A DNA stretch of 64,000 nt from a virus (Duplodnaviria; Caudoviricetes). Under the pieces are notes generated by a model, which was not told the DNA's origin, did no database searches, and was given only the letters and a program-made list of their open reading frames with translations. The stretch is from the IMG/VR virus record IMGVR_UViG_3300025751_000013, positions 1-64,000 of that record; one strand, 5' to 3'. Positions 8,403-48,828 of the stretch are shown here, piece after piece; the first letter of the stretch is position 1, and each line of letters opens with the position of its first letter. Both the position numbers and the translations under genes were made by a program.

Positions 8403-10171
8403 TAAAGATTAAGGATTTAACAGTAAAAAACTTTATGAGTGTAGGTAATGTAAGTCAAGGTGTTGACTTTGATCAACAAAGCCTTACACTCGTGCTCGGC
8501 GAAAACTTAGATCAAGGAGGTGACGATTCGGGTTCCCGTAACGGTACAGGTAAAACAACAATCATTAATGCATTGTCATACGCTTTATATGGCCAGGCTC
8601 TGACCAACATTAAGAGAAACAACCTTATTAATAAAACTAATTCAAAAGGTATGCTAGTTACACTTAGTTTTGAAAAGAATAATATAAATTATAGAATTGA
8701 ACGTGGACGTTCTCCTAATATTCTTAAGTTTTATGTAGATAATACCGAACAAGTTGAAGAAGACGAGTCACAAGGCGATAGTCGCAAAACACAAGAAAGT
8801 ATACAAGAACTATTGGGCATGAGTCATGATATGTTTAAACATATTTTAGCACTTAATACATATTCTGAACCATTTTTAAGTATGCGAGCTAATGATCAAC
8901 GTGCTATTATCGAACAGTTATTAGGTATTACATTACTAAGTGAAAAAGCCGATTCGTTAAAAGACGAAATTAAGCGTACTAAAGAGGCTATTACAGAAGA
9001 AACATTTAAATTAAACGCAATCGAAAGTGCTAATCAAAAAATACAAACTACAATTGACAGTTTAGGTAAAAATCAACGTGCATGGGTTGCAAAACGCAGT
9101 TCTGACGAAGAAAAACTAGTAACTGCTATCGAAGAATTAGAAAAACTAGACATTGATGCTGAATTAGATGCACACGAAAAATTAGCAAACTGGACAGAAC
9201 ATAATAATTCTATTTTGGCTCTTAGAAAAGAATTAAGCACACTAGAACCTGCACTAATACGTGCTGACAAAAGTGTAACCAAAGCAGAAAAAGATATTGC
9301 AGAACTAGAAGATGCTACTTGTTATACTTGTGGACAAGAACTTCATGCAGACAAAAAAGCAGAGATTGCAGAACGCAAAGGAAAAGAACTAGAAGATGCT
9401 ATTGCTTATCAAACAGAAATTACTGGAAAAGTAAAAGATGTTGCACTTGCTCTTAAAGAAATTGGTGATATTAATGGTCGTCCTACTACATTCTACGAAA
9501 CTGCAAAAGAAGCATACGAACATAGAAACAATGTTAAAAACTTGCAAAATGCATTAGTAAACAAACAAGCAGAAGTTGATCCGTATGAAGTACAAATTAA
9601 CGAACTAACAAGTACTGCACTACAAGATCTTGACTGGAGTATCATAAACAATCTTACAGAGTTTAAAGAGCATCAAGAGTTTCTATTAAAATTATTAACT
9701 AACAAAGATTCGTTTATACGTAAGAAAATTATTGATCAGAATTTAGCATATCTCAACAATAGGCTAACTTATTACTTAGATGTATTAGGATTACCACATC
9801 AAGTACAATTTTTAAACGACTTAAATGTTGAAATTACACAACTAGGACAAGATCTAGACTTTGATAATTTGTCAAGAGGTGAACGCAATAGACTTATACT
9901 CGGACTATCGTTTGCATTCCGTGATGTTTGGGAAAGTTTATACCAAGGAATTAATTTATTGTTCATTGACGAACTTATCGATTCAGGAATGGATAGTGCA
10001 GGTGTTGAAAACTCAATCAGTGTACTTAAAAAAATGACTAGAGAACGCAAGAAAAACATTTTCCTCATATCTCACAAAGATGAACTAGTTGGAAGGGTAA
10101 ACAATGTATTAAAGGTTGTAAAAGAAAACGGATTTACTTCTTATGCAAACGATTTGGAGATTGTAGAATGA
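8399..10171 (+). CDS. gp46: Recombination ATPase, Rad50/SbcC-like (T4 gp46)
   Basis: Walker A NGTGKTT, coiled coil with CYTCGQ zinc hook, LSRGE signature, LFIDE Walker B and ISH. Confidence 0.93.
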   Translation: MIKIKDLTVKNFMSVGNVSQGVDFDQQSLTLVLGENLDQGGDDSGSRNGTGKTTIINALSYALYGQALTNIKRNNLINKTNSKGMLVTLSFEKNNINYRIERGRSPNILKFYVDNTEQVEEDESQGDSRKTQESIQELLGMSHDMFKHILALNTYSEPFLSMRANDQRAIIEQLLGITLLSEKADSLKDEIKRTKEAITEETFKLNAIESANQKIQTTIDSLGKNQRAWVAKRSSDEEKLVTAIEELEKLDIDAELDAHEKLANWTEHNNSILALRKELSTLEPALIRADKSVTKAEKDIAELEDATCYTCGQELHADKKAEIAERKGKELEDAIAYQTEITGKVKDVALALKEIGDINGRPTTFYETAKEAYEHRNNVKNLQNALVNKQAEVDPYEVQINELTSTALQDLDWSIINNLTEFKEHQEFLLKLLTNKDSFIRKKIIDQNLAYLNNRLTYYLDVLGLPHQVQFLNDLNVEITQLGQDLDFDNLSRGERNRLILGLSFAFRDVWESLYQGINLLFIDELIDSGMDSAGVENSISVLKKMTRERKKNIFLISHKDELVGRVNNVLKVVKENGFTSYANDLEIVE

Positions 10172-11007
10172 TTAAAATTGGTGTAAGAGGTAGTAAATTA
10201 GCACTTGCATATGCCGATATTGTTGTTAACAGAATAAAAACAAACTTTAAACCAATTGTAGATATACAAATTGTTCCTATTAAAACAGATGGCGACATTT
10301 ATGCTAAAAAAAATATAGCAGAAATAGGCGGAAAGGGTGTTTTTGTCACAAAAATCGAACAAGAGTTGTTAGCAGGCAATATTGATTTAGCAGTTCATAG
10401 TTTTAAAGATCTTCCTAAGGACTTAGACGATAGAACAGAAATTCGTGCAGTAATGCCAAGGCATGATCCGCGTGATGCTGTTATCGGAAATCTAGTCGAC
10501 GGTTGTAAAATAGGCACAAGTAGTCCTAGACGTAAATTACAACTTGCAAAAATGTTTCCTAACAGTGAAATACTTCCAATAAGAGGTAATATTGACACAA
10601 GAATACAAAAAGTTCGTGACAACGAGTACGATGCTACAATTTTAGCAATGGCAGGACTTGATACAATGAACTTAGGTCACGAAATAAACAAGATACTAGC
10701 ATTAGAAGAATTAGTACCAGCTGTAGGACAAGGAGTTATTGCTGTACAGTCATTAAAAAATCAAAATACAGTATTATTAGAGAAAATTAATCACTTAGAA
10801 ACATATCAGTGTGCAATGGCAGAACGTAACATGCTTCAAATGGTTGACGGTGATTGTGATACCGCTATTGGATCAATTACAAGTATCATTGGCGATATAA
10901 TTTCGCTCGAAGCATACAATTACGAAAATAATAAATCTGTAAAAATGCAATCTAAAGCAATTGATTATCTTAATCTAGGCGAATTAGCTGGTAATAGAAT
11001 AAAATGA
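10168..11007 (+). CDS. hemC: Porphobilinogen deaminase (hydroxymethylbilane synthase), auxiliary metabolic gene
   Basis: RGSKLAL, GGKGVF, DLAVHSFKD (catalytic Asp), GTSSPRR, RGNIDTR, ILAMAGL, PAVGQG, AER..GDC (cofactor Cys). ATGA overlaps on both sides. Confidence 0.93.
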   Translation: MIKIGVRGSKLALAYADIVVNRIKTNFKPIVDIQIVPIKTDGDIYAKKNIAEIGGKGVFVTKIEQELLAGNIDLAVHSFKDLPKDLDDRTEIRAVMPRHDPRDAVIGNLVDGCKIGTSSPRRKLQLAKMFPNSEILPIRGNIDTRIQKVRDNEYDATILAMAGLDTMNLGHEINKILALEELVPAVGQGVIAVQSLKNQNTVLLEKINHLETYQCAMAERNMLQMVDGDCDTAIGSITSIIGDIISLEAYNYENNKSVKMQSKAIDYLNLGELAGNRIK

Positions 11008-12815: not shown

Positions 12816-13706
12816 TTATCCGAAAAAATTTGATTGGTCAAATGTAATAGGAATTTGAAAAGTTTTTGGAGCACCAGCGTTTTGTTCATCTTCTGTAGTG
12901 TTTACTGTCATAGGCTCTAATTCAAACTGTGATCTTTGAATTTCTAAATGTTCTTTAACTCCAGTATAGAAGGTTTTATCTGAATTTTTAATAAATTCTT
13001 CTATATGACCTCTATTTGTTACAGTTTGATCTTCAACTCGTATGCTTACTACACTTTTGCACAACATATCGATGGTTAGTGCAGTTAATTTTGAGAAACT
13101 TTCATTAAACTTTGACATTTTTTCACTATCAGGAACAGTATCGTCGTTAACTAGATTAAAGATACGCTGTTCTTCAAACGTTTTTAAACTACTTTCAGTA
13201 AACTCTCTATAAGTTAATGGTCGAATTGTTACTCCTAGTCCATTAATTGTACTTTCAGAGTGAAACTCATTAGATAAAAGTTTATTAAGTAACTGTCTAA
13301 GGTCAACAGTATAGTCTTTCTCTATACCTGCACCTGGAATTTTAGTAGTTAGTGTTAGTTCTTCGCCATATGTTGCAACTCGAATGCCTACAAGTACTGC
13401 ATCAAGATCGATACTTGGCATATGCCATGGATCAATTATAGCAGGAATACAACTCTTAATTACATCAACAGTTGCTTGTCCGTTTAACAACGCATCTGGT
13501 GTTTTAATAGTAATTTCGTCTTTAGCAGTCATTGGAAATACCGGAAGTTCACCGTTATCGGGTAATTCGAGTGTGCCTTCTGGGTAAAAATTACCTTTAC
13601 TAGGCAATGTTATGTATACTTTAGGTTGTCTAAAGTATTTTTGCAGCGGGTTAGGCTGAAAATCTTGATTATTTCCCTGAAATGCATTAGGGTCGAACTC
13701 TGGCAT
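12816..13706 (-). CDS. Baseplate hub assembly / tail assembly chaperone, T4 gp26-like
   Basis: YITLPSKG.FY..PMTAKDE..DLDAVLVGIRVATYGE..FDQSNFF. Start placed at 13706 because GGAG lies 6 nt upstream (the track uses 13718). Confidence 0.75.
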   Translation of the reverse strand: MPEFDPNAFQGNNQDFQPNPLQKYFRQPKVYITLPSKGNFYPEGTLELPDNGELPVFPMTAKDEITIKTPDALLNGQATVDVIKSCIPAIIDPWHMPSIDLDAVLVGIRVATYGEELTLTTKIPGAGIEKDYTVDLRQLLNKLLSNEFHSESTINGLGVTIRPLTYREFTESSLKTFEEQRIFNLVNDDTVPDSEKMSKFNESFSKLTALTIDMLCKSVVSIRVEDQTVTNRGHIEEFIKNSDKTFYTGVKEHLEIQRSQFELEPMTVNTTEDEQNAGAPKTFQIPITFDQSNFFG

Positions 13707-13717
13707 GGTAATCTCCA

Positions 13718-13752
13718 TATAAATACAATGTAAAGTATATATCTATATTTAT
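13718..13752. promoter_or_regulatory. Face-to-face late promoters: TATAAATA (+, 13718-13725) and ATAAATA (-, 13746-13752)
   Basis: The T4 late consensus occurs on both strands in the short divergent intergenic region. Confidence 0.6.
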
Positions 13753-33783: not shown

Positions 33784-33951
33784 AAACCATTATTAGCCAC
33801 TATTATAGATCGAAATCTCTAAAAAACTATATATACATGTAATTGCTAGTTAAATTAGCATAAAACTAACCAAAAAATGTCGCATTTGATAAATAGAATT
33901 GTGTTTATAAACTACATACATAATACACAGTCTGCATAGGGGAACGATTAT

Positions 33952-36900
33952 ATGTCAACAATAAGACTCAAGAGAAGTGCTGAGCCGGGTAAAATCCCAT
34001 CGATTGAACAACTAGAACTAGGCGAAGTAGCTGTCAATACACATGACGGCAAAATGTTTATGAAAAGAGACCAAAGTGGTAACTTTGCTATAAAAGAATT
34101 TGGCGCAAGAGACGCCGCAAGTAATGTGTTTTACGTAACACAAGACGGATCTAATACTAACGATGGTAAAACAATAGGAGACGCATTTGCGACTATTGAT
34201 TACGCTTTAAAAAATATTCCAGAGGGATCAACACTATATGTAAAGGCTGGACAGCACACAGTTGACAATCCAGTTAAACTTCCGGCATTTGTTGCTATTG
34301 TTGGTGACTCACTTAGAACTACATTTGTACAACCAAAAAATCCAGCAGAAGATATATTTTGGGTTAACAACGGTTGTTTCCTTAAAGATATGCGCTTTAA
34401 TAACTACATTGCACCTAGTGCAGCAGTTTCGTTCCCCCCAGATGGAAGCGCCGGATCAATTATGTGTTCACCGTATGTACAAAACTGTACATCATATACT
34501 ACAACTGGTACAGGTATGCGAGTTGACGGATCAGTTGTTACTGGCCTACGCTCAATGGTTGTTGACGCCTATACACAGTATAACCAGGGTGGTATTGGTG
34601 TGCATCACCTTAACAGAGGTAACACACAGCTTGTTTCGATCTTTACAATTTCATGTGATATTTCGATTCTTTGCGAAAGCGGCGGCTTTTGCTCACTAAC
34701 TAACTCAAACACATCATTTGGTAACTACGGACTTATTTCCGATGGTTATAGTGAAGCACTATTTGGTGCGTCTGCTGGTGCTAACATTAGTAGAAACTCG
34801 ATGTTTATGAATGACCTAGTAACGGTTCCATTTATTCAAAACGCATCTGTGTTTAGTGGCACTGGTGAAGTTTATACAATTTCAGAAGCTACTCCGATTA
34901 AAGTCGGTCAAGGTGTTGTAACTGGACCAACACTAACCCAAGAAGACAGTGATTTATTATTTGCTAGAGAAAGAATTTTAGCCAATAGAGAAGTAATTCA
35001 AAGATCAACAGTTAACTTTGTGAAAGATAATTATCAAACAGGCGGCGAATTTGACGAAGCTAAATGTGCTAGAGATAGTCAACTTATACTTGATGGTGTA
35101 GGTTTTGATGTTGCACTAGATACAAACTTTAACAGTGTTTATAATGGTATTTCGTATCAAAGAGCAAATGCTAAATTTGTTATTAATACCCAGTTTGAAG
35201 CAACAAAAGGCGCAATTGATTTCTTAAAAGCCGAAACAGCAGCTTTACTAAGTGGTACTTCATTAACTAGAGCTAATGCAGGATTTGACGATGTAAAAGG
35301 AATTCTTGACGGTGGTGTAATAAGCACTACAGTTCCAGGAGATGGTGTAGCCGACGCACTTACATTTAGTTCAACACTAGGTGTAACAGATGGTATAAAT
35401 GCTAGAACAATTTTACAAGCGAATATTGCATTCTTACAAGCAGAAGTACTTGCATTTAACGATGATTATAATGCAACGGCGATTGCTGCTGACGCTACCG
35501 GTGCAACTACAGTAGTTTATGATAGAGAAAAGTGTCAAAGAGATGTACAATACATTGTAGACGCTCTTTCATATGACGCACAGTATGGTGGCAATAGCGC
35601 AACAGTATCGGCTATGAATTCTTATATTGTTGGTACAGGAATTGATCAACTTCCAGCAGATCAAAGAGATCTTACTGCTGATTCATATGCTCACTTAGCA
35701 GATATGGTTGCAGCAATTTTAACTGATCCGTCAGTTGATCCTGGTACAAAATTAAGTGCTGGTAGTCCAGACAATTCCGCAGCGGTTACTGCTGCATCTC
35801 TTTCAGGTACAATCGAAGCACTTGTAGATACATTTGCAGGAGTATTAATTGAAGATGCAACGCCGGCTGGCACACCAACTGCAACTATTCCAGCAGTAGT
35901 AACTCCAAATGTTACAACATTGGGTGTAGCAGCAGAGTTTACAACATCGCAAACTGCAATCACAAATGCGTCTGCACAAATTGTAGATGATGTAATTGCA
36001 TTTGTTAATCAAGAATATAATTTCTCTTTCAACCAAGAAAAATGTGCAAGAGATTTACAAGAAATAATTGATGCAGCTAAAATAGATGCTGTTACAAACT
36101 CTTTGTACAATCAAACTGTAGTTGGTTTAACATACACAATGGAAAGTAGTGCTTATCTACTTAACTTACAAAAAACACAAACCGCAGCAGGTATTCAATA
36201 TGCTAGAGATTTAGTTACAGCAGACGGTAATTTTACAGATACTACAGACAGAACTGAATTTATTAATGCTGTAAACGAAGTAATTAACATATTAAATACA
36301 GGAACTCCAACATCTGACTTAACAACTGGTACTTTTGCAACTAATTTTCCAACAAGCACTGATTATTCTAATGCAGCAAGTCGTGCAGCCGCAGCTGAAG
36401 CAATAATAAACGGTATTCCTTCTTTACAGACTGATGCTCTAACTTTCCTACAGAATGGGAACGCAGGTGGTGGTTTTGATTTTTCAGCCCAAGCCGGAGA
36501 ATTTTCAAGTTTAGCTAGTGGAGGTACTGTTTCATCAGATGAACTAAAATCAGTATACCAAGATATGGTAAGAGATGGAACATTTACCAAGTGTCAAAGA
36601 GACGTGGCTTACTTAGCACAAGCAGTAGCATTTGATACAATGTATGGTGGTAATAGTGCAACTTTGCGTGTAGCAAAATCATACTTTGTAGGTGCAATTG
36701 CAGGTGACGACGATACTGAAATATCACAACTAGGTGGCGGACAAAAGAATGCAACACTTGCACTATATGCCTTCTTGGCAGTACAAATTGCGGCAGCTGT
36801 TAGCGCTGCGTCAGCAAATGCAGGGTTAGGTTCGGGCTCTGGTGCATCAAAAACAATTAATCAATTAGTTGCAGTTGTTACTGATCATATTGACGCAGAC

Positions 36901-39900
36901 GGTGTAGCATTAGCTTCTTTAGATACAGTTATACTTGCCAGCCCTGCCGACGACGATGAAATTCTAACAGTATCTGAAATTGAAGCAGTTGACGACGAAG
37001 CAATTAATGATACAATATTCTATCTACAAGATGCATTTGTACTACTAGACTTTAACGAGTCTAAGTGCTACAGAGATACAGGTATTATTATTGATGCTGT
37101 TGTAGATGACATGGTACTAGGAACAAATTATAAATCAGTAGTTTCTGGTAGAACATATTCAATGGATTCAGCGGCACTTGTTATTGCGGATCAAAAAGTA
37201 GAAACATTAGCAGCAATAAATCATGCAAGAGACGAAGCACTAGGATTTATCAATGACTTTTCGTCTAATGCTTCAAAAGTTACAGCATATAATAGAGTAC
37301 AGTCAAACTTTAATTTGATTTCTGATTTAATTAGTAAGTCAGAGTATGCATTTAAATCATATACAGTAGTAGACGCAGATTACAATCCGACGGCTGCTGG
37401 TAACTATGGTAGTACTTCTACTCCTGCAAACAGAGTTATGACATTAACAATTGGCCAGCATAGTTTTACAACATCAGATACAGTTGTAATTGCTCCTAAT
37501 AGTTTAACATTCCAGTGTTATTCAAGTGGTGATAATGAGTTCCAAACTATTACACATCCAAGAGAAGTAGCAGGTCAAAGTGCAGATCCAAATGCAGTAT
37601 CTCCAGGTTCAGATCCAGCATTTGAAACTCCAGTAGATATTGTTGCAGTTACAGACACTACAATTACAGTAGACGTTGGTGTAAATACTGGTGCTGGTAA
37701 TGTTGAGCATACATTTATTAGTGCTACAGAAAATGGTATAACATATGGTAATTCGTTTATTAATTATCCAATGCCAACAAATGTTCTACCAGAAATAAAC
37801 AGAGCGTTTACAAACATCAAGAAAAACAAAGCATATTTGATTGAAGAAGCAGTTGCTCATATCGATCAAAACTATCCGTTACTAGGATACGACAGAGGAA
37901 CATGCGAAAGAGATATCGGACTTATAATTGATGCTGTGTCATACGATGCAATGTTTGACTCAAACTTCCGTTCAATTACAGCTGGTAAAGCATATCTAAG
38001 AGGTGTTATACAAGTTATAACAGGTGATGTACTTGTAGATGAAACAACTACTACAACAGGTATTACTGGTACACTATTAACAATGGATCCAACTAAAACA
38101 GTAGTAAATCCAGGTGACGAGTTAACAGTTCTACCAACTGAGCAAAAAATTGCAACACTAGAATCATTTAGAAAACTAAGAGATTTACTTGTTCAGATTA
38201 CATTTGATAATGATACAAAGGCACGTGTAGTAGACCGTATGGATCTTATTATAGATATTGTACAAGATGGCGAATCAGTAATTCCAGCAGTAAGTATTCC
38301 TACAGCAAACATTACAACTAACGACACAGTAAACTATACAGAAAACTTTAATGCAACTGGTGTTCCAGAAACAATTACAAACATTGAAAATTCGAGAGAA
38401 TTTATTATTGCAGAAACAAAGGCATTTATTGATACTAACTTCCCAGCATTATTATCAACTGATGCTAACGGTAATATTGTCCGAGACTATAATGCAAACG
38501 ACAAGTGTGAAAGAGACGTAGGTCTTATATTAGATGCACTAAAATATGACTTAACATATGGCGGTAATATGGAAACCTTAATAGCTGGTAAAGCATACTT
38601 CTCAGATGTTGTTGCATCAGCAGATGGACCAGTTGATTTATTAGGTTCACGTTCAGTAAACATAGATATTGTTAATGCTGGTGGTATTCAACTGATTAAT
38701 CCAATTACAATTACAACATCTATTAAACATGGCTTAGTTGATGGATCACAAGTAACACTACTAGATATTAGTGGCGTTGTTGAACTAACAGGTAAAACTT
38801 TCTTTGTTAAGAAAGTAAGCGACACAGTGTTTGAATTATATGATGATGCAGCCCTAACAATCCCATTAGACGGTACTACTGGATTTACAGCATATGCTAA
38901 CTTAGGTGGTACTGTAAGAGTTAATGCAGCAGAAGTAATTGCTACTGTAGAGTCTTATAACTTCCTAGCAGATCTAATATTGACACTAGGTAATGGTGTT
39001 GCTCCAGTTAATCCACAGCAAACAATTGTTACAGCAGGAGCACTGACAACAACTAACAGTCCAAATGGTACTAGAGCAAAATCACTTGTTGACGATATTA
39101 TTACTATAATTGAAAACGATAGCTCTGTTCCAGTTGAGTTGCTTGCAGATCCAAGTTGGGTCACTGGCTACAATGCAACCGAAACATATCCGTTAGAATT
39201 AAATGGCACCGATCTTTATTCAGACTTCTTGATTATGCAAGGTGAAAAAGATGATATACAATCAGAAATTACAAGATTTATTGAAGCAAACTTTGCTTAT
39301 GATAAAAAAGTATGCCGTAGAGATATGGGATACATTATTGATGCTACATTATTTGATGCACTATACAACGGTAACAGTGCAAGTTATGATGCAGCAAGAC
39401 AATACTATACACAAGGTAAACTAGTTATTCCAGCAATCCAGCGTAAAGCAACAGGTGACGCAATGGAACTTCTTAGAAAGCGTATAGGTGATGTACTACG
39501 TTCAAACAGAGTTGTTGCAGAACAACTTCCAACATCGCCGACATTAGTGCTACAAGATACAACTACTCCAGCAGCCACAATTACTGAAATTCTAAGAATT
39601 CAGAAAAACTTTGATGTACTTGAAAGTCAAATACGTAGAGATTATTTCATCAATGACTTTATTGATGTAATTGATCCTGACTTTAATCTTCAAACAGAAA
39701 CAGCAAACAAAATTAGAAATAAGATACTTGCTGAAAAAGAAAACCTACAGGTTAAAACAATTAAATTTATCGATACAACATTTAGAGAATTCCGTTTTGA
39801 TAGAGAAGTTTGCTCAAGAGACGTAGGACTTATTTTAGATGCAGTTGCAATGGATGTTGCACTAGGTACTAACTATAATTCAATTATTGCAGGTCTATCA

Positions 39901-42900
39901 TATCAAAGAGGTAGTTTGTCAATTGGTACTGTTAAAGATGAGCAGAAGCCACAAACAATAGCAGCTATTGAATTCCTAAAAACAGAAACACTAGCAATTT
40001 CAGGACTGTCAGCAACAGGTATTGCAAGAGCAACAGCAGCATTTGATGAAATTATAGACATCTTTACAAATGGTGAAACAAGTACTAGAACAGCAGCAGA
40101 TGCAATTACATATCCAGTTCCGACAGGTGTTGATACTAACAAACAAAACTCACATGACTTGTTACGTGCTAACAGAGACTTTATATCTGAAGAGATTATT
40201 GAATGGATTGAAGATAACTTTACAAACTTTGAATATGATGAGTTTAAGTGTGAAAGAGACACAAGAATTATACTAGATGCAATTGCACTAGACGCAGCTC
40301 TAAATACAAACTATAACACAATTACAGTAGCACTTGCATACAAGCGTGTAAATGCACAACTAGTAATTACAGATCAGTTGATACAAACTGTAGCAGCTAT
40401 GGATTATCTACGCAAATTAGTAGACGAAAACAAAGATCTAAGTGTTATTGGTCGTGCAAGAATGACACGTTTAATCGATGATATTATAGAAATTGTACAA
40501 TCAGATACAACTGACTTAGATGTATTTGACAGTACAAACTTTGATAGTACACTACTTAACGCATACGAAAACATTGAAATGAATGCACCTAAAAATGCAA
40601 CACAAGATGAAATCGATGCCAAAGAGCAGTTAAAACTTAACAAAGAATTCTTAGCAAGTGAAGTATTAGCGTTTATCAACTTAAACAATCCGACACTAGA
40701 CTATGTTGAAGCTAAGTGTAAAAGAGACGTTAAATTCTTACTTGATGCAGCAGCATTTGACTTACTATACGGTGGTAACTCAGCAACTGTACAAGCGGCT
40801 AATAGCTACTTTGTAGGAACAGCTAACCAGTTAGGTGATGACGAAGTACAAGCAACAATCGATGCTTATAACCATTTAAAAACTGTTATTGAACCAGTTG
40901 TACTTGCAACTAGTGAAGATAACAATCCAGTATATGTACCAACAGCTGGTAATAGTATGCGTCAAATTATCGAAAGTGATCCAGGAACAGCTACTGAAGT
41001 TGCAGCTATTCAAGCATCGCTTGATATTGTTATTGCTAGAATACAAGGCACACCGACACCAACACTAGTTAAGCCAAGTTTAACAGGTGCTGATGCTAAC
41101 TTAATTAAAGACTTTAATGAAATATCAGAGACTGCTTCAGTAGAAGCACAGAAAGTTGTAGATTATGTAAATGATCAATTTGCAAACTTTACATATGATA
41201 TTGACAAGTGTGCAAGAGATGTTAAACTAGTTGTACTAGGCGCAGCAATTGACTTAGAGTATTCAACTAACTATAACAGTGTAACTAATGGTCTTTCATA
41301 CCTAAGAGGAAATGCTAAGAAAGTTTCAAACGCATTCCAAAAAGCAATTACACTAGCCGCACTTGATAAACTAAAAACACTAGCAGCTACAACTATCGGA
41401 ACAGGTACAGGTTATGCAGCAGCAGTAACAGCAGTTAATGCAAGTATTGATACAGTAAAAACAATATTTGATGAAGGTTTAGTTGGCATAACACCAACAA
41501 ACGCTGTATATGATCCAACAACAGGTGTTATGGATCTTACAATTGGCGAGCATACATTCATACAAGGTGATACAATTACACTAGAGCCAGGCAGCTTGAA
41601 ATTTACTTGTGCAAGTGACGGAAACAACGTTGTACAAGCATACCCAAGAACAAGTGATCCGGCATTTAATTATACACTAAAAATTATTGACACTGGTAAA
41701 CTAACAATAAGTGTAAACGTTGGAGTATCATCAGAAACATCAGCGCACACATTTATTACAGCAGATGAAAAAGCAATTAAAACTGGTGCTCTTCCAAATG
41801 CAGTTCCGGCGCTAACATTTGCAGGTATAGATGCAACAAATGACTCGGCTTATGCAGCAAAAGCAATACTTGCTAACAAAGCGTTTATTGCAGCAGAGAT
41901 GTCAGCATATGTTGTAAATGATCCTAACTTTATACTAGTTGGTAACTACGATGAAACAAAATGTCGTAGAGATTCAAATAATATATTAGATGCAGTTGCA
42001 TTAGATTTGCGTACAGGTTCAAACTATAACTCACTATATGCAGGTATTGCATACACAAGAGCAAATAGTGATTATGTAATTAGTGCCCAAAAATCAGCAA
42101 CAATAGCAGCTATTGAATTCTTAAGAGATACTGTAAAAGCACTATCAAATGTTGATGCAGCAGCAGACACAAGAATTGATTCACTATTTGCAATTATTAT
42201 CGCAGCAATTAACAGTGGCGCTACAAGCACGTTGCTTCCAGGAGGCGCTACAGGCGTTCCACTATTAAGTCTTCCAACTCCGAATACTCCAATTGCAGGC
42301 GGCGCAGATGCAGCAGCACGTTTAACATATAACAGAGATGCGTTAGCAGAAGAAGTACTAGAACACATTAACCAAAATGCAAATGCTATATACCTATCTA
42401 TGGATCAAGCTAAATGTTCAAGAGATGTAAAATACATTGTTGAAGGACTAGCACATGATGCAGTATATGGTGGTAACATTGGTGCTAAACTAAATGGCGA
42501 AGCATACTTTGTAGGTAACGATACTGAACAGTTAGGCATTGGTCAAAGATCTGCAACAGTAGCAGCATATCAACATCTTGCACAAGTAATAGAGCAGTTA
42601 GTCGGCGCAGGTGTAGCTGATGCTGGATTCACTAGCGTAATATTAGTAGCTAACCCAACTCAAGCGTGGAGTGATAATTCAGTACCTAATGCAGCAACAA
42701 TAGCAACTTACTTAGCAGACAGTTCAACTGGGTTAATTGAAACTTGCATAGTTGCACCTATTAATGCAAACAAATTGGCTAACTTCTACACACCAACAGC
42801 GGCATCATATGTTCCAACTACAGGTGTACTAACACTTACTGTAACTGGTAATCCGTTCTCAAATGGTGATACAATTAGACTAGCAGAACGTAGCATTGGA

Positions 42901-45900
42901 TTTAAATGTCAAAGTGATGGATTTAGAAAAGTATTCTACTATCCAAGAACAACTGATCCAGCACTTAACTCAGACTTAACAATAAGTAACGTAGTAGGTG
43001 ATAGTTTTGACGTCCAGATTGGTGTATCATCAGAAGAAAGTACACATCAGTTCGTAGGACCAGCTACAAATGCAATCATTGATAGCACATTACCAGATGA
43101 TGTACAACCAGCAAGTGCTCAGTATGTAACAACTGTATCGTTCACAGATGCAGCAACAGCAATTGTTGCAGGATCAGGAACAGCAGTAGATTCAACAATA
43201 TCTTATATCAATTCAGATCTAAGCTTTAACCAAACTAAGTGTGAAAGAGACACAGGTTACATTGTTGAAGCATTAACACATGATACATTGTACGGCGGCA
43301 ATTATGCAACTACACAAGCAGCTCTAGCTTATAGAGTTGGTGTCGCAGGACAGTTAGGTAGTAATTCACCTGAAACTACAGCAACAGTAGCAGCATATGG
43401 TACACGTTTACCAGCAGTAGTACAAGCAATTGTTCAAGGCGATGCACTAACACCGTCAACAGGCAATTCAGTGACTCAAGTTGCAAATGCAAATACAGTA
43501 AGCCCGTGGACTAATGCTAATGCAACTATTGCAGCAGATATTCAAAATATTGTAGATGTTATTGAGCATGGCGGTGATCCACTATCAGTTGATGCTTCGA
43601 TGATAGCAGAAACTAACATAACTGAAGGTACAATATATGATGCAGAATCAGGTGTACTAACACTAACACTTAGCGGCACATCTACAGGACTAGTAGCAGG
43701 TACAAGCACAATTAGACTAGCACGTAATAGTTTAACATTTACTTGTGCAAGTGATTCACATGCTACTTCATTAACATATCCAGACAAAGATAGTTTTGGT
43801 TATGATAGAGAATTAAGAGTATTAAGTGTTGCAGAAGCAGGTAACACAACTATTACTGTTAACATAGGTAATGCACGTAAACTAGGTGCTACTTCAGCAG
43901 ATAGAATACACAGATTTGTAAGTGCAGCAGCTAATGCAGTTGTATTACCAATTTCACCAACAAGACCAACTATAGCAAACACATTTGCTACATCACTTGT
44001 AACAAAAGCCGATGCAGCAAGCGATAACTTTGGTGATTTGATAAATGCATATCTACTATCAGACTTCCCAACAAGCACATACGATAGAACACGTTGTAAG
44101 CGTGATGTAGGATTTATTGTAGACGCTCTATCATACGATGTACTATATGGCGGTAACAGCGCAATGCGTGAAGTTGCAAGAAGCTACTTTAGCTTTGGTC
44201 TAAACTTACTAGGTGATGATTCTAAAGAAACAGATGCAACAATATTTGCATATGAGCACCTAAGTAGTATTATTGGAGAGATTGTACAAGGTGTACAAGT
44301 AGGAAAAGCTACAGGTAACTTATTAGTACAAACATATGATACAGCAAGTACACTAGCAGAAGCAGCAGTTGCTCAAACACTACTAAAACTAGTTACAGAT
44401 ACAATTAGAGATAGAAGTGTTAATAAGCTAGATGAGCAAGAGCTACCAGATATTACTTGGGCAGCGTCAGAATTCCAAAATGACTTTGCAAGCATTACTT
44501 TTAACAAGTCAGTAGCACAAGCTGATACACTACAGTTTATTGACGATAGATACACAACATTTAGTTACGATCAGTTTAAGTGTTCAAGAGACGTTGGATT
44601 GATCTTAGATGCTGTTTTAGCTGATATGGTAATGGGTGGTAACTACCAGTCATTACTAGCAGGAAGCAGTTATTACAGAGCAAGTGCGTTTATTGTAAAA
44701 GGCGATCAGCTACCAGAAACAATTGAATCAATCAAATTCTTGAAGAAAGAAGTTGAGAAAATCTTAACAGATCCATTGTTTACAGCAACAGTTGTTCCAG
44801 GTACATATCCTAACCCAACTATAAGAGCTATTACTCCGTTAGAAGCTATTGAAAATGCTAAAACACTAACTGAAGTATTTGGTGATACGCAAGAGTATGC
44901 AGATCTTATTGCAAGATTTAATGATGTTCTTAGAGTTATGGAAAATGGACTAACTAACGCAGCTGAAGATCAAATACAATTTGTTGCTCCAACTGGAATT
45001 ACAGGAACAAGAACTAATGCTAAAGACATATTACTTGCAAACAAAGAATTCTTTGTTGAAGAGTCAGTGGCGTTTATCAAAGAAAACTTCCCACTAATTG
45101 GATATGACAGACAGACTTGTGAAAGAGATGTAGGACTAGTTCTTGATGCTCTAGGGTTTGACTTAATGTTTGGTTCAAATATGCGTAGTATTACAGCAGG
45201 TAGATCTTACTTTAGAGAAGGCGCTGCTGTTGTAAGTGCAGATCAAAAGAAAGCAACACTAGCAGCATTTGAATTCTTAAAAGTTAAAGCAGCAGAAGTT
45301 GTAAGCAGTGCAATACTATCAAATGGTTCTTACGTAGCACCAGGCGGAAATAAAGAATTTATCATAACAGTAGGTGCTGACTCATATGAACAAAAACCAA
45401 CTGGTGTATTCTACTTAGATGGTATAGAGCAGCCGATAATAGAACTAGATCCAGGTGCAGTATATACCTTTAATCAAGATGATCCAACTAACGCTTACTT
45501 TGGCGATAATCGTCATCCTCTAGTGTTTAGCACAACAAGAGATGGTGATAATGCAGGTGGTACAACTTATGACACTGGTATTGCTTACTACTTAGACGGT
45601 GTATCAGTTGACGAAGCACAGTACGAAAGAGGATTTGCTAGAGCAACACTACGTAGAGTAGAACTTGATCTTAGAGGCAAGTATACAACAGAACTATACT
45701 ATGCAGGCGGCGCCCGCAAAGGTATGGGTAACTTAATCTACGTAAAAGCAAAAACAACAGGTGAACCGATTAAAAAGTCTATACAAGATAATATGAATGT
45801 TATTCTTGCACTTCTTGATAGAGGTAATGTTACTTGGCAGCCATATGATGCAGAATATAAAACAGTAGGCACAGATACAAGTGGTAATCTAAAACTTTAC

Positions 45901-48828
45901 ATTAGAGAAAATCCATTTAAGGTCGGAGATAAAATTAAACTAAAACCAAATAGTTTGACATTTACATGTGCATATGATACTACTACTCCGTTATCATATC
46001 CAGATTATAACGGCGGAACTGGTGCAGCTCCAGCATGGCAAGCAGATTTAGAAATCACAGCAGCAGATGATGTTAGTATTACTGTTAACGTTGGAGATGC
46101 CGCAGGCGCAGCAGCAACTAGTGTTCATACATTTGTAAGTGCAGATATTGATACTATTAGTTTAGTTCCAGGATATGTAACACCAAGCCCAACTGGTTAT
46201 GATGCAGGAACTTACCTAAGTACATATAAACAAGCTAGAGATAATATCGAAGCTAACAGAGAGTTTATAATTGCAGACGTAATCGGATTCATTGAAACTG
46301 ATGATACATTACTAGGATTTGACAGAGATACTTGTGCAAGAGATACTGGACTAATAATTGATGCAATATCATGGGATTTAGTATTTGATTCAAACCAACA
46401 AAGTATTACAGCAGGTAGAGGATATCTAAGACAAGATGTAGGAGTTCTTCCAGCAACTCAAACAGCAGCTACAACAGCAGGATTTGATAGACTAAGAGAC
46501 TTACTTTTGGCTCTAGTAATTCAAACTGGTGCAGATGCAGAAAGAGCAAAAGAAAGTATTTCGGCTAACATTGGTCTAATAAATGATATCATTACTAATG
46601 GTGATAGTCAAACAATTCCATCTAGAAAACTTCCAGCACCAACAACAGGCGCAGCAATTGTTCCAACTGCTATTACATATACTCCAGCTGATGGTTTAAT
46701 GGTTATTACATCAGAAGCGCATGGTTTAAATGTAGGCGATTATGTAATGATTGCAGACGAGAGTTTAACATTTACTTGTGAAAGTTCTCTAGGAAGTGGT
46801 ATACTAGAAAAAATTAGTCATCCAAGATCAAACGAGTATGCAAGCCGTAGAGCAATTATTGTTTCAGCAGTAGCTGATGCCAATACATACACTATTAACA
46901 TTGATCCAAATCTTGAAAACAGTGGCGACGGTAATGTTGCTCATACATTTGTAAGTGCAAGCGCAAATGCAATTAAGAAAGCAGAAGATGCTAATGGTAA
47001 ATTAGATGTATTCTTTAACATTAGCGCACAGCGTACATGGATTATCGATGCAGTAGAAGACTATATTGAAGATGCTACCGGATTAAATCAACCAGCTGGT
47101 AGTTGGAATACCAAGTGTAAAGAAGACATAGGTCTAATAATTGACGCAGCATTGTATGACTTAATGTACGGTACCAATCTTGAAACACGCACAGCAGCAC
47201 AAGCATATACAACCGATGCAGGTGTATTACTACTAGGTGCAGACCCAACTGAAAGATCTAACACTATTGCAGCATATGTATATCTAGCAGACTTGCTTGA
47301 GCAAGTTGGTAATGATGTAGTTACAGAAACTTTATATGGCGATACAGCAACAGCTGGATTTACAGCAACTGGTACAGTACCAGGCGGCAACGGATCTCCT
47401 GCACTAGCAGCTCATGATAGTGTTGAAGTTGTTAGAGCTTACCTAGATGCATATGTTACAAGTGCAACTGATAATGCAACTGACAAAGCAGCAGCAGAAG
47501 CTACACTTCCTGCAGTTGCTTATGGTTCGAGAACTTGGTCTTCAACTACACAACAAGCTATATTCAACCAATTCCAAAGTGAACGTCAAGAATTGCAAGA
47601 TGCAGTTACAGCGTTTATTGAAGAGAACTTTGCTTATGTGCAAGAAAAATGTAAGAGAGATGTAGGCTATATTCTAGATGCAGTTTATTACGATATGACA
47701 TATGGTGGTAATAGCGAAACGTTTACAGTTGGTAAGAGTTACTTCTCCGACGAAGGTGTAAATCAATTAAGAACACTAAGAGAAGTAAATGCAACTCAAG
47801 CAGCATACGGACACTTAAGAGACTTAGTAGAAGCAGTTGCCATTGGTGATGACACCGTGGCGTTGATTGCAACTCCTAAACAGACAGATATTGCTTATAA
47901 TTCAACAGCAGTTGATCAGGGAGGCAGCAATGCTGGTAGTACCCAGGCTAAATTACTAATAAGCAATGTGTTAAGTTTCTTAGATGATACTATTAATAGA
48001 ACAAATGTAATACCAACTGTAGCTGAAACTACTCCATCTACATCATGGGTAGCAGCTGATCTAGTAACAGCCGCAACTGCACTAACTGATGCAAAGCGTA
48101 CAGTACAAGATGAAACAACTGTATTCATTGAAGAAAATTATGCTTACATTAAATCTAAGTGTGAAAGAGATATTAGATACATTGTAGATGCAGTTGCATA
48201 CGACATATTCTATGGTGGTAACTCACAAGCACATCTAGCAGCAGAGCAATATTTTGACGGAGGTAATTATCAAATACCAGTTCCAACAAAGAATGCTACA
48301 GTACAGACATTTAAATATCTACTAGAAATAATGTCAGATGCTGTACGTAACATTACTGTGTCTGCATTACAAAATAGAGTAATCCAAACTACAACTGGCG
48401 CATCTGCAACAACGTTTGAAGCAGATCGTATTAAGGACTTGTTAACAATTATTGTTAATCTAGTACAGCATGGTTACTCAAGTCAAGTTACATTTGATGT
48501 TAATATCACAACAATACCGAGAATTAACGAAAGTGTAACATTCCACCAAACAAGTTTGATTACAGCAAGTGGACAAACATTTGAGTGGGTTGGATCCGGA
48601 ACTAATATTCAATCAGCGGTTCCATACAAAGGCGGACAACCAGTTGAAGCACAACAGGTAGTGGAAAGTAACGAAGGTAAAGTTTACTTTACAAGTACTG
48701 ACCAAAAAGGTGACTTCAAAATTGGTAACAGCTTAACTATTGAACGTGCGTCTGGTACGATTACTGGACAGACTTTTGATAGATCACTATTCGCGGTGTT
48801 AACACCATACATCTTGTCACTACAGTAA
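33952..48828 (+). CDS. Giant fibre/tailspike-like protein: Mtd-N-like anchor, beta-helix, 22 phycobiliprotein-like Cys repeats and accessory beta domains
   Basis: 4958 aa; N-terminal TIRLKRS..P....L..GE.AVNT.DGK; FYV..DGS..NDG..AFATI beta-helix cap; 22 C-x-(R/E)-D repeats; late promoter ATAAATA at 33889-33895. Confidence 0.8.
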   Translation: MSTIRLKRSAEPGKIPSIEQLELGEVAVNTHDGKMFMKRDQSGNFAIKEFGARDAASNVFYVTQDGSNTNDGKTIGDAFATIDYALKNIPEGSTLYVKAGQHTVDNPVKLPAFVAIVGDSLRTTFVQPKNPAEDIFWVNNGCFLKDMRFNNYIAPSAAVSFPPDGSAGSIMCSPYVQNCTSYTTTGTGMRVDGSVVTGLRSMVVDAYTQYNQGGIGVHHLNRGNTQLVSIFTISCDISILCESGGFCSLTNSNTSFGNYGLISDGYSEALFGASAGANISRNSMFMNDLVTVPFIQNASVFSGTGEVYTISEATPIKVGQGVVTGPTLTQEDSDLLFARERILANREVIQRSTVNFVKDNYQTGGEFDEAKCARDSQLILDGVGFDVALDTNFNSVYNGISYQRANAKFVINTQFEATKGAIDFLKAETAALLSGTSLTRANAGFDDVKGILDGGVISTTVPGDGVADALTFSSTLGVTDGINARTILQANIAFLQAEVLAFNDDYNATAIAADATGATTVVYDREKCQRDVQYIVDALSYDAQYGGNSATVSAMNSYIVGTGIDQLPADQRDLTADSYAHLADMVAAILTDPSVDPGTKLSAGSPDNSAAVTAASLSGTIEALVDTFAGVLIEDATPAGTPTATIPAVVTPNVTTLGVAAEFTTSQTAITNASAQIVDDVIAFVNQEYNFSFNQEKCARDLQEIIDAAKIDAVTNSLYNQTVVGLTYTMESSAYLLNLQKTQTAAGIQYARDLVTADGNFTDTTDRTEFINAVNEVINILNTGTPTSDLTTGTFATNFPTSTDYSNAASRAAAAEAIINGIPSLQTDALTFLQNGNAGGGFDFSAQAGEFSSLASGGTVSSDELKSVYQDMVRDGTFTKCQRDVAYLAQAVAFDTMYGGNSATLRVAKSYFVGAIAGDDDTEISQLGGGQKNATLALYAFLAVQIAAAVSAASANAGLGSGSGASKTINQLVAVVTDHIDADGVALASLDTVILASPADDDEILTVSEIEAVDDEAINDTIFYLQDAFVLLDFNESKCYRDTGIIIDAVVDDMVLGTNYKSVVSGRTYSMDSAALVIADQKVETLAAINHARDEALGFINDFSSNASKVTAYNRVQSNFNLISDLISKSEYAFKSYTVVDADYNPTAAGNYGSTSTPANRVMTLTIGQHSFTTSDTVVIAPNSLTFQCYSSGDNEFQTITHPREVAGQSADPNAVSPGSDPAFETPVDIVAVTDTTITVDVGVNTGAGNVEHTFISATENGITYGNSFINYPMPTNVLPEINRAFTNIKKNKAYLIEEAVAHIDQNYPLLGYDRGTCERDIGLIIDAVSYDAMFDSNFRSITAGKAYLRGVIQVITGDVLVDETTTTTGITGTLLTMDPTKTVVNPGDELTVLPTEQKIATLESFRKLRDLLVQITFDNDTKARVVDRMDLIIDIVQDGESVIPAVSIPTANITTNDTVNYTENFNATGVPETITNIENSREFIIAETKAFIDTNFPALLSTDANGNIVRDYNANDKCERDVGLILDALKYDLTYGGNMETLIAGKAYFSDVVASADGPVDLLGSRSVNIDIVNAGGIQLINPITITTSIKHGLVDGSQVTLLDISGVVELTGKTFFVKKVSDTVFELYDDAALTIPLDGTTGFTAYANLGGTVRVNAAEVIATVESYNFLADLILTLGNGVAPVNPQQTIVTAGALTTTNSPNGTRAKSLVDDIITIIENDSSVPVELLADPSWVTGYNATETYPLELNGTDLYSDFLIMQGEKDDIQSEITRFIEANFAYDKKVCRRDMGYIIDATLFDALYNGNSASYDAARQYYTQGKLVIPAIQRKATGDAMELLRKRIGDVLRSNRVVAEQLPTSPTLVLQDTTTPAATITEILRIQKNFDVLESQIRRDYFINDFIDVIDPDFNLQTETANKIRNKILAEKENLQVKTIKFIDTTFREFRFDREVCSRDVGLILDAVAMDVALGTNYNSIIAGLSYQRGSLSIGTVKDEQKPQTIAAIEFLKTETLAISGLSATGIARATAAFDEIIDIFTNGETSTRTAADAITYPVPTGVDTNKQNSHDLLRANRDFISEEIIEWIEDNFTNFEYDEFKCERDTRIILDAIALDAALNTNYNTITVALAYKRVNAQLVITDQLIQTVAAMDYLRKLVDENKDLSVIGRARMTRLIDDIIEIVQSDTTDLDVFDSTNFDSTLLNAYENIEMNAPKNATQDEIDAKEQLKLNKEFLASEVLAFINLNNPTLDYVEAKCKRDVKFLLDAAAFDLLYGGNSATVQAANSYFVGTANQLGDDEVQATIDAYNHLKTVIEPVVLATSEDNNPVYVPTAGNSMRQIIESDPGTATEVAAIQASLDIVIARIQGTPTPTLVKPSLTGADANLIKDFNEISETASVEAQKVVDYVNDQFANFTYDIDKCARDVKLVVLGAAIDLEYSTNYNSVTNGLSYLRGNAKKVSNAFQKAITLAALDKLKTLAATTIGTGTGYAAAVTAVNASIDTVKTIFDEGLVGITPTNAVYDPTTGVMDLTIGEHTFIQGDTITLEPGSLKFTCASDGNNVVQAYPRTSDPAFNYTLKIIDTGKLTISVNVGVSSETSAHTFITADEKAIKTGALPNAVPALTFAGIDATNDSAYAAKAILANKAFIAAEMSAYVVNDPNFILVGNYDETKCRRDSNNILDAVALDLRTGSNYNSLYAGIAYTRANSDYVISAQKSATIAAIEFLRDTVKALSNVDAAADTRIDSLFAIIIAAINSGATSTLLPGGATGVPLLSLPTPNTPIAGGADAAARLTYNRDALAEEVLEHINQNANAIYLSMDQAKCSRDVKYIVEGLAHDAVYGGNIGAKLNGEAYFVGNDTEQLGIGQRSATVAAYQHLAQVIEQLVGAGVADAGFTSVILVANPTQAWSDNSVPNAATIATYLADSSTGLIETCIVAPINANKLANFYTPTAASYVPTTGVLTLTVTGNPFSNGDTIRLAERSIGFKCQSDGFRKVFYYPRTTDPALNSDLTISNVVGDSFDVQIGVSSEESTHQFVGPATNAIIDSTLPDDVQPASAQYVTTVSFTDAATAIVAGSGTAVDSTISYINSDLSFNQTKCERDTGYIVEALTHDTLYGGNYATTQAALAYRVGVAGQLGSNSPETTATVAAYGTRLPAVVQAIVQGDALTPSTGNSVTQVANANTVSPWTNANATIAADIQNIVDVIEHGGDPLSVDASMIAETNITEGTIYDAESGVLTLTLSGTSTGLVAGTSTIRLARNSLTFTCASDSHATSLTYPDKDSFGYDRELRVLSVAEAGNTTITVNIGNARKLGATSADRIHRFVSAAANAVVLPISPTRPTIANTFATSLVTKADAASDNFGDLINAYLLSDFPTSTYDRTRCKRDVGFIVDALSYDVLYGGNSAMREVARSYFSFGLNLLGDDSKETDATIFAYEHLSSIIGEIVQGVQVGKATGNLLVQTYDTASTLAEAAVAQTLLKLVTDTIRDRSVNKLDEQELPDITWAASEFQNDFASITFNKSVAQADTLQFIDDRYTTFSYDQFKCSRDVGLILDAVLADMVMGGNYQSLLAGSSYYRASAFIVKGDQLPETIESIKFLKKEVEKILTDPLFTATVVPGTYPNPTIRAITPLEAIENAKTLTEVFGDTQEYADLIARFNDVLRVMENGLTNAAEDQIQFVAPTGITGTRTNAKDILLANKEFFVEESVAFIKENFPLIGYDRQTCERDVGLVLDALGFDLMFGSNMRSITAGRSYFREGAAVVSADQKKATLAAFEFLKVKAAEVVSSAILSNGSYVAPGGNKEFIITVGADSYEQKPTGVFYLDGIEQPIIELDPGAVYTFNQDDPTNAYFGDNRHPLVFSTTRDGDNAGGTTYDTGIAYYLDGVSVDEAQYERGFARATLRRVELDLRGKYTTELYYAGGARKGMGNLIYVKAKTTGEPIKKSIQDNMNVILALLDRGNVTWQPYDAEYKTVGTDTSGNLKLYIRENPFKVGDKIKLKPNSLTFTCAYDTTTPLSYPDYNGGTGAAPAWQADLEITAADDVSITVNVGDAAGAAATSVHTFVSADIDTISLVPGYVTPSPTGYDAGTYLSTYKQARDNIEANREFIIADVIGFIETDDTLLGFDRDTCARDTGLIIDAISWDLVFDSNQQSITAGRGYLRQDVGVLPATQTAATTAGFDRLRDLLLALVIQTGADAERAKESISANIGLINDIITNGDSQTIPSRKLPAPTTGAAIVPTAITYTPADGLMVITSEAHGLNVGDYVMIADESLTFTCESSLGSGILEKISHPRSNEYASRRAIIVSAVADANTYTINIDPNLENSGDGNVAHTFVSASANAIKKAEDANGKLDVFFNISAQRTWIIDAVEDYIEDATGLNQPAGSWNTKCKEDIGLIIDAALYDLMYGTNLETRTAAQAYTTDAGVLLLGADPTERSNTIAAYVYLADLLEQVGNDVVTETLYGDTATAGFTATGTVPGGNGSPALAAHDSVEVVRAYLDAYVTSATDNATDKAAAEATLPAVAYGSRTWSSTTQQAIFNQFQSERQELQDAVTAFIEENFAYVQEKCKRDVGYILDAVYYDMTYGGNSETFTVGKSYFSDEGVNQLRTLREVNATQAAYGHLRDLVEAVAIGDDTVALIATPKQTDIAYNSTAVDQGGSNAGSTQAKLLISNVLSFLDDTINRTNVIPTVAETTPSTSWVAADLVTAATALTDAKRTVQDETTVFIEENYAYIKSKCERDIRYIVDAVAYDIFYGGNSQAHLAAEQYFDGGNYQIPVPTKNATVQTFKYLLEIMSDAVRNITVSALQNRVIQTTTGASATTFEADRIKDLLTIIVNLVQHGYSSQVTFDVNITTIPRINESVTFHQTSLITASGQTFEWVGSGTNIQSAVPYKGGQPVEAQQVVESNEGKVYFTSTDQKGDFKIGNSLTIERASGTITGQTFDRSLFAVLTPYILSLQ
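34960..48480 (+). repeat. Array of 22 helical C-x-R-D protein repeats (11 A-type, 11 B-type)
   Basis: Cys codons start at 35065, 35533, 36043, 36592, 37066, 37903, 38506, 39313, 39811, 40249, 40717, 41209, 41962, 42415, 43240, 44095, 44581, 45118, 46333, 47116, 47650 and 48160. Confidence 0.9.

Follow-up and report, generated by a model that had tools for sequence, protein, structure and literature searches.

The window analysed here is the stretch of 64,000 nucleotides at positions 1 to 64,000 of the IMG/VR record IMGVR_UViG_3300025751_000013, which belongs to a virus of the Caudoviricetes. It contains one uninterrupted open reading frame (ORF) on the forward strand at positions 33952-48828, encoding a giant fibre of 4,958 amino acids (P0001). 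The protein matches the PHROG tail-fibre families 5342, 4527 and 17885 and the virion families 701 and 18802 (E 1e-190 to 1e-69) and, judged by this homology and by its place in a structural gene module, it is a virion fibre or structural protein. Between nucleotides 34930 and 48444 it carries twenty-two repeats which, by their sequence and by structural modelling, are almost certainly an array of globin domains of the lineage that comprises the phycobiliproteins and the BBAG globins.

The repeats are about 140-150 amino acids long and the spacing between them ranges from 146 to 405 amino acids. A preliminary description made from the sequence alone had placed 22 of them at 34960-48480; the count was recovered by regular expression and alignment, the extent fits, and all the peptides quoted at that time are present in P0001. 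Twenty-one repeats read C-x-R-D and one (Cys4389) reads C-K-E-D, and the Cys codons fall within 35065-48160. The remark that the protein is otherwise poor in cysteine also holds, as 22 of the 35 cysteines are those of the repeats, six are in the N-terminal domain, six in the beta inserts and one elsewhere. Invariant in all copies are the Cys, the Asp of the R-D pair, a second Asp at +14 and the Tyr at +30; an Arg, an Asn and a Thr reach at least 90%. Every repeat matches the family profile, which includes these repeats, with E from 1e-22 to 1e-44. By these values for the single repeats, and by the recurrence of the same domain 2,253 times in about 120 homologues, the repeats are not a product of chance.

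Two subtypes can be distinguished, A with the motif Y-G-G-N and B with x-T/S-N-Y/F. If the mixed repeat 17 is read as B, the order along the fibre is B A B A B B A A B B A B B A A A B B B A A A, and these letters, taken as opening and closing brackets, are balanced; with eleven copies of each type such an order has a chance of 1 in 12 and is not significant alone. Repeat 7 matches the profile in two pieces, positions 10-88 at amino acids 1455-1563 and positions 86-142 at amino acids 1646-1745, and represents a domain-in-domain insertion between helix F' and helix G. The nested domain matches PF16190 (E1_FCCH) at amino acids 1585-1652 with 24.8 bits (cut-off 29.5), and this is all that Pfam shows for the whole protein. 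The features of the fibre and of the window are collected in Table 1.

Table 1. Features of the fibre gene and of its surroundings, in positions of the window.
Feature	Position	Strand	Remarks
hemC (porphobilinogen deaminase)	10168..11007	+	PF01379, 222 bits; directly after SbcC-like nuclease gene
T4 baseplate-protein homologue	12816-13718
Portal	17269-19014		upstream of fibre gene
Major head protein	22960-24141		upstream of fibre gene
N-terminal domain, aa 1-326	33952..34929	+	fibre adaptor and probable pectate-lyase-like beta-helix; 6 Cys
Globin repeat 1	34930..35349	+	Cys372 (codon at 35065), type B
Globin repeat 2	35398..35817	+	Cys528, type A (YGGN)
Globin repeat 3	35908..36327	+	Cys698, type B
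Globin repeat 4	36457..36876	+	Cys881, type A
Globin repeat 5	36931..37350	+	Cys1039, type B
Beta insert 1	37366..37728 (approximate)	+	Cys1189; L-T-F-x-C ... H/Y-P-R ... H-T-F; phrog_1276
Globin repeat 6	37768..38187	+	Cys1318, type B; loop insertion of about 35 aa after helix F'
Globin repeat 7	38371..39186	+	Cys1519, type A; split by nested domain (aa about 1564-1645)
Nested small beta domain in repeat 7	38704..38907	+	E1_FCCH-like
Globin repeat 8	39178..39597	+	Cys1788, type A
Globin repeat 9	39676..40095	+	Cys1954, type B
Globin repeat 10	40114..40533	+	Cys2100, type B; domain 1 of folded pair
Globin repeat 11	40582..41001	+	Cys2256, type A; domain 2 of folded pair
Globin repeat 12	41074..41493	+	Cys2420, type B
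Beta insert 2	41458..41820 (approximate)	+	Cys2553
Globin repeat 13	41827..42246	+	Cys2671, type B
Globin repeat 14	42280..42699	+	Cys2822, type A
Beta insert 3	42757..43119 (approximate)	+	Cys2986
Globin repeat 15	43105..43524	+	Cys3097, type A
Beta insert 4	43594..43956 (approximate)	+	Cys3265
Globin repeat 16	43960..44379	+	Cys3382, type A
Globin repeat 17	44446..44865	+	Cys3544, mixed A/B
Globin repeat 18	44983..45402	+	Cys3723, type B; folded singly, model m8a9774dcdbeb
Beta insert 5	45817..46179 (approximate)	+	Cys4006
Globin repeat 19	46198..46617	+	Cys4128, type B
Beta insert 6	46627..46989 (approximate)	+	Cys4276
Globin repeat 20	46981..47400	+	Cys4389; C-K-E-D, Glu in place of Arg
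Globin repeat 21	47515..47934	+	Cys4567, type A
Globin repeat 22	48025..48444	+	Cys4737, type A
C-terminal domain, aa about 4837-4958	48460..48825	+	phrog_3442 over aa 4848-4957
Second giant fibre ORF	51332-64000, runs past window end	+	at least 4,222 aa within window

A profile of the 22 repeats (A1) was compared with the sequences of the PDB, and 15 of its 18 matches (E<=10) were phycocyanin alpha chains, the best with E 0.07. The deeper profile A2, composed of 106 diverse repeats from the window and from ten related viral loci, gave 38 matches, 35 of which were phycobiliproteins, beta chains now included, and the best E was 0.0023 (phycocyanin). The signal thus strengthens with the depth of the profile, as expected of a true relationship. 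For the comparison of profile with profile, a reference of CpcA and CpcB was assembled from 80 cyanobacterial cpcBA loci fetched with a 71-residue stretch of 1f99_A. With hhalign, A2 aligned to this reference at 94.1% probability and P 1.2e-7, as against P 0.009-0.78 for 20 column-shuffled alignments and 0.75 for the reversed alignment. Both HMMER and hhalign place the Cys, Arg and Asp of the repeats in register with Cys84, Arg86 and Asp87 of alpha-phycocyanin, as had been proposed at the outset from an alpha-phycocyanin sequence which agrees with the CpcA sequences fetched here. The Pfam phycobilisome family PF00502 (cut-off 22.2 bits) is found in the homologues P0011 and P0017 with 33.8 and 33.3 bits, and in a single fibre domain of the complete relative G002, described below, with 30.6 bits.

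AlphaFold models were obtained for repeat 18 alone with an alignment of 22 rows (m8a9774dcdbeb; predicted local distance difference test score, pLDDT, 77) and for the B-A pair of repeats 10-11 with an alignment of 73 rows (mbaa667589786; pLDDT 87.9, predicted template modelling score, pTM, 0.86). In the first domain of the pair, helices A, B, E, F', F, G and H are at residues 8-19, 21-35, 43-63, 67-75, 79-87, 89-104 and 111-129, and the C-x-R-D motif lies on the modelled helix 43-63 (helix E). When the pair was compared by VIA-align, which works independently of Foldseek, with 48,161 representative chains, the top eight matches were all phycobiliproteins (Z 15.2-12.5, root mean square deviation, rmsd, 2.1-3.0 A over 115-130 residues). 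Far-red allophycocyanin came first, with Z 15.2 and an rmsd of 3.0 A over 124 residues; the bilin domain of ApcE reached Z 13.8 with 2.1 A over 115 residues, and allophycocyanin and phycoerythrin reached Z 13.5 and Z 13.4. The eight were followed by a photocobilin globin (Z 11.9), sensor globins (Z about 11) and ordinary haemoglobins (Z 7-8), and the weaker model of the single repeat gave the same order. The protein smURFP was also among the structural matches. Foldseek, proposed earlier as a check on an A+B pair, likewise returned a globin-like fold with phycobiliproteins on top at probability 1.00 and the same ranking, but its E-values were 0.07-0.3 and never below 0.07, and the Z scores of VIA-align and the sequence profiles were relied on rather than these E-values. 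The echo of the G-loop-H region noticed in the preliminary description fits the structural mapping, in which model residues 2-129 fall on residues 29-159 of allophycocyanin. Kinship with the T4 baseplate was tried as a separate candidate and rejected: the hidden Markov model of the repeats matches neither gp6 nor gp7, and for each model the 50 highest-ranking structural matches include no T4 baseplate chain; the resemblance to gp6 taken up below may be a very remote link or noise.

In neither modelled domain is there an X-Y hairpin before helix A, and the alignments start at phycobiliprotein residue 28-50 or so, from which it follows that the repeats consist of the globin core and lack this hairpin, which antenna subunits have. 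In the light-harvesting subunits the X-Y helices mediate alpha-beta pairing and disc assembly. By sequence and model, therefore, the repeats are relatives of the globin core and not canonical antenna subunits. Four largely independent lines, namely the PDB profile, the profile-profile comparison, Pfam and structure, strongly support their relationship to phycobiliproteins, and the globin fold of this lineage claimed at the outset is borne out by the PDB profile, hhalign with its shuffles, AlphaFold, Foldseek, VIA-align and the PF00502 matches in homologues.

CXRD is the chromophore-binding motif of phycobiliproteins, with the Cys forming the thioether and the Arg and Asp engaged in hydrogen bonds to the bilin, and some BBAGs carry this motif and bind bilins without lyases (Rockwell et al., PMC10151467). 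In a survey of 2,253 repeats from about 120 giant homologues the Cys is conserved in 99.5%, the Arg in 94.5% and the Asp in 99.9%, with further near-invariant positions at Asp +14 (99.3%), Tyr +30 (99.7%) and Thr +46 (92%); the overall column identity of the repeats is only 15-25%. A lone, near-invariant Cys beside the exact partners of a bilin argues for chemistry that has been retained. Covalent bilin binding by the repeats is therefore a plausible prediction, which the context favours and to which we give about even odds.

The HemC encoded in the window would be a tetrapyrrole supply for the fibre. This gene goes unmentioned in the paper on tetrapyrrole genes of phages (PMC11480375). The major capsid protein of the window shares 83-90% identity with its counterparts in five related viral records, and 84% with that of G002, which is one of the five and the sole complete relative (399,796 bp, CheckV 100%). 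G002 carries a homologous fibre, hemC (PF01379, 278 bits) and an overlapping gene pair for a heme oxygenase (75.8 bits) and a ferredoxin-dependent bilin reductase (58.2 bits). Adjoining this pair (L023, G002:C1:333000-348000) are genes for ClpS, Hsp20 and a full-length Hsp70 (DnaK, 866 bits); the reductase gene occupies L023:6688-7371 on the minus strand. The matches of PF00502 in G002 are all within giant fibre ORFs, so that the fibres are the only detected candidate acceptors for its bilin. Neither psbA nor PHY nor any of the lyases CpeS, CpeT and HEAT_PBS was found in G000, G002, G006, G008 and G012. In 15 fragmentary relatives, which are 4-52% complete and hence uninformative on this point, no heme oxygenase or bilin reductase was found. 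Relatives of the bilin reductase occur on 335 IMG/VR contigs; of the reductase-bearing contigs of at least 128 kb, all eight tested have ORFs of 1,829-4,416 amino acids with the repeat domain. The purpose of the alaS-hemO-pcyA/X cassettes in phages of non-phototrophs is unknown, and a globin of BBAG type has been named as a possibility (PMC11480375).

Among cultured phages, tblastn found the repeat domain in 323 GenBank phage records, nearly all of them T4-like cyanomyoviruses. In P-HM2 the protein gp7 (4,454 amino acids) has two CxRD copies and an L-T-F-T-C insert. Adsorption needs light in S-PM2 (nine repeat matches), P-HM1 and P-HM2 (four each), all of which have CpeT, and takes place in the dark in P-SSM2 and P-SSP7, which have neither repeat matches nor CpeT (PMC6628666). 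The repeats hence track both CpeT and the published light-dependent adsorption in five of five cultured cyanophages, an agreement that we take as a lead and not as a result. In S-PM2 the light-dependent adsorption is independent of host photosynthesis (PMC6628666), and a light-sensing step independent of photosynthesis, residing in host receptors and/or tail fibres, has been suggested (PMC6628666 and work cited there). The cpeT gene of S-PM2 lies 1.4 kb upstream of the giant gene bearing the repeats; the link between CpeT and the repeats fails in the clade of jumbo phages. A gene for a 2OG-Fe(II) oxygenase is also found just upstream of the "short tail fiber" of S-PM2 (L188, NC_006820, 165928-177267). 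The RefSeq record of S-PM2 places 16 transfer RNA (tRNA) features inside this coding sequence of 3,779 amino acids, which looks like a problem of annotation coordinates.

From these data a mechanism can be proposed in which each repeat would acquire a linear tetrapyrrole in the infected cell. This would be a bilin produced by the phage itself, with a heme oxygenase and a reductase of PcyA/PcyX type acting on heme and the phage HemC feeding the pathway. The bilin would be held by a thioether to the Cys, its propionate and its pyrrole nitrogens being secured by the Arg and the Asp. Because no lyase was found in the complete relative G002, the repeats are proposed to attach it autocatalytically, in the manner of ApcE and BBAGs. 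The released particle is predicted to carry up to 22 bilins per chain, a prediction which we see as evenly balanced. As for its use, a light-responsive module which gates adsorption or the conformation of the fibre appears the most likely one, speculative as it is, and photoprotection or plain light absorption are alternatives. Taken together, the prediction that the fibre is a true biliprotein with up to 22 covalent bilins, serving as the phage's own photoreceptor for light-gated adsorption, is given a probability of roughly 0.2.

Several observations weigh against this prediction. The whole of P0001 gave no match to PF00502 at E up to 1 and stays below the cut-off of the family, and of the 22 repeats searched singly repeat 11 alone gave a match (E 0.12, 12.8 bits). 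The additional Asp, Tyr and Thr, likewise invariant, cannot be matched securely to residues of phycobiliproteins and may belong to a polar network of purely structural function. The record from which the window is taken, 30% complete, yielded no heme oxygenase and no bilin reductase. The reductases of the contigs carrying the repeat domain are 73-100% identical and form one clade, so that they count as about one independent event. Chance would produce the five-of-five agreement with light-dependent adsorption in about 1 case in 10, and the odds are less favourable still as P-HM1 and P-HM2 are near-identical. P-SSM2 has a reductase without repeats and S-PM2 has repeats without a reductase, which means that the coupling of the repeats to bilin genes of the phage is not a strict one; a cyanobacterial host provides bilins of its own. 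Finally, we know of no report of coloured preparations of the well-studied cyanomyoviruses.

Some of these observations would also fit a fibre in which the repeats are structural relics, that is, globins which once bound bilin and are now rigid, stackable modules lengthening the fibre without any ligand, C-x-R-D, the second Asp, the Tyr and the Thr being kept as a buried polar network or as an inter-domain contact. We consider this a serious alternative, if an unlikely one. The two domains of the modelled pair pack in a confident relative orientation (pTM 0.86), like a shaft module, and the number of repeats varies freely among homologues, from 4 to 36, like that of spacer repeats; the lack of a lyase in the complete G002 and the bilin genes of P-SSM2, present without repeats, point in the same direction. 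Packing alone, however, hardly explains why a lone Cys should persist in 99.5% of 2,253 copies along with its exact Arg and Asp partners, since a Cys in a protein core normally exchanges with Ala, Ser or Val. Moreover, the related jumbo phages, in which no other acceptor was detected, have genes for HemC, heme oxygenase and a bilin reductase.

That the conserved residues serve a different chemistry, the Cys in redox sensing or in inter-chain disulfides formed after release, or the pocket in binding heme, a cyclic tetrapyrrole or a metal, is improbable. The globin fold does match heme sensor globins as well (Z 11), HemC feeds heme as much as bilins, and the oxidising surroundings after lysis could form disulfides. 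Yet the near-invariant residues (C, R, D, D, Y, T, N) include no His for the ligation of heme, the closest folds and the sole sequence matches are bilin-binding globins and not heme globins, and with one Cys per domain a disulfide within the domain is ruled out. Chance or convergence, by which an unrelated helical bundle such as a baseplate domain of gp6/gp7 type would have acquired a CxRD-like motif, can be dismissed as very improbable, for although single repeats of P0001 fall short of significance in Pfam, the Atlas features of the repeat point to Gp6-like_1st and baseplate J clusters (with a low recognition of 1351) and hhalign to the N-terminus of T4 gp6 (L021) gives P 0.004, this last alignment has a probability of 8% and a gap of two residues where the CxRD lies, the alignment to CpcA/B reaches P 1.2e-7 with no shuffle below 0.009, the signal grows with profile depth, and the structural match covers the whole domain (Z 15.2) with an order of seven helices identical to that of phycobiliproteins.

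Outside the repeats the fibre is composed of different domains. The match to the tail fibre family phrog_17885 covers amino acids 3-439 of P0001, and the Atlas features of the N-terminal part of about 330 amino acids are nearest to the viral clusters Mtd_N, DUF1565 and Pect-lyase (recognition 3265). The view that the globin domains are inserted into a beta-helix scaffold was not borne out, as a beta-helix is suggested for this N-terminal part only; the body of the fibre is the chain of globins itself, interspersed with six beta domains of about 120 amino acids, and the beta-helix is an end domain. These six beta-rich inserts share the conserved motifs L-T-F-x-C, (Y/H)-P-R and H-T-F and have a conserved Cys of their own, and they are also present in P-HM2 gp7. 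The C-terminal domain is conserved among homologous fibres (tblastn to L001-L016). Searches of the PDB sequences with the N-terminal 340 and the C-terminal 139 amino acids gave no match.

The source record is a viral contig of 109.9 kb which CheckV rates 30% complete, so the source is a jumbo phage. Megablast of the fibre gene against GenBank phages gave no match, and no tRNA was found in the 64-kb window. The second giant ORF listed in Table 1 is rich in Gly, Thr, Asn and Val, with short repeats of G-N-V/G-D-V type, and its part within the window has no Cys and no globin repeat. Near-identical DNA is present in sequencing runs of 17 studies, which sampled freshwater, marshes, estuaries and the sea, and metatranscriptome contigs of three studies span the whole fibre gene at about 99% identity. 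In two of the three, the contigs from RNA libraries begin at 33865-33924, which is 30-90 nucleotides upstream of the ATG of the fibre, and their depth rises there several-fold, with no such rise in a DNA run, which hints weakly at a transcript start just before the fibre gene.

If the fibre proved to be a photoreceptor, this would explain why hemC and genes for heme oxygenase and PcyA/PcyX-type reductases occur in phages that infect non-phototrophs, as well as the adsorption of cyanomyoviruses such as S-PM2 and P-HM2, which is light-dependent yet independent of host photosynthesis. Two questions become directly testable: the purpose of phage bilin genes, for which this phage lineage supplies many candidate acceptors in its fibres, and the light sensor of cyanophage adsorption, as three light-requiring phages carry the domains and two dark-adsorbing ones do not. 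Pigmentation combined with a response to light would be a property new to virus particles, and compact biliprotein domains with self-attachment would be of interest for fluorescent probes. In public protein space the domain is carried by 1,558 clusters at 50% identity, and the best 150 of these are all multi-copy, with 4-36 matched stretches in proteins of 844-6,382 amino acids. In agreement with the novelty claimed for it at the outset, no account of these domains as part of phage particles came up in the literature searches.

With the phycobiliproteins (CpcA/B, ApcA/B, CpeA/B; PF00502) the repeats share the globin fold with helices A, B, E, F', F, G and H, the K-C-x-R-D-(I/V)-G at the start of helix E, the G-G turn after this helix and the similarity in the G-loop-H region. 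They differ in lacking the X-Y helices, in a B-E loop shorter by about 11 residues and in the extra invariant Asp, Tyr and Thr. Whereas phycobiliproteins are free subunits of 160-170 amino acids in (alpha-beta)3 discs, the fibre has 22 tandem copies in one protein, encoded by a phage in which no photosynthesis gene was found. ApcE, the core-membrane linker, is like the fibre in having a phycobiliprotein-type domain within a much larger multidomain protein, and it attaches its bilin without a separate lyase; it differs from the fibre in having one such domain, with the Cys at a different position and linker repeats following, and in being part of the phycobilisome.

The BBAGs, photoglobins and photocobilins resemble the repeats in being non-antenna members of the same globin lineage, found in heterotrophic bacteria, and some BBAGs have the CXRD, attach bilin by themselves and are encoded with genes for heme oxygenase or pre-PcyA (PMC10151467). 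The BBAGs are small, single-domain, cytoplasmic proteins encoded next to bilin genes, in contrast to the arrays of 4-36 domains in structural proteins seen here; the fibres of G002 are more than 200 kb away from the hemO-reductase pair, in the same genome and not adjacent to it. Comparable proteins already known from phages are the giant gp7-like baseplate proteins and "tail fibre" proteins of T4-like cyanomyoviruses (P-HM2 gp7 and the "short tail fiber" of S-PM2), which have the same CxRD globin domain and the L-T-F-T-C beta insert and are annotated as virion structural proteins, their globin nature being unannotated in the records examined. Unlike the phage of the window, these viruses belong to a different lineage and have only 2-9 copies per genome, placed among other domains.

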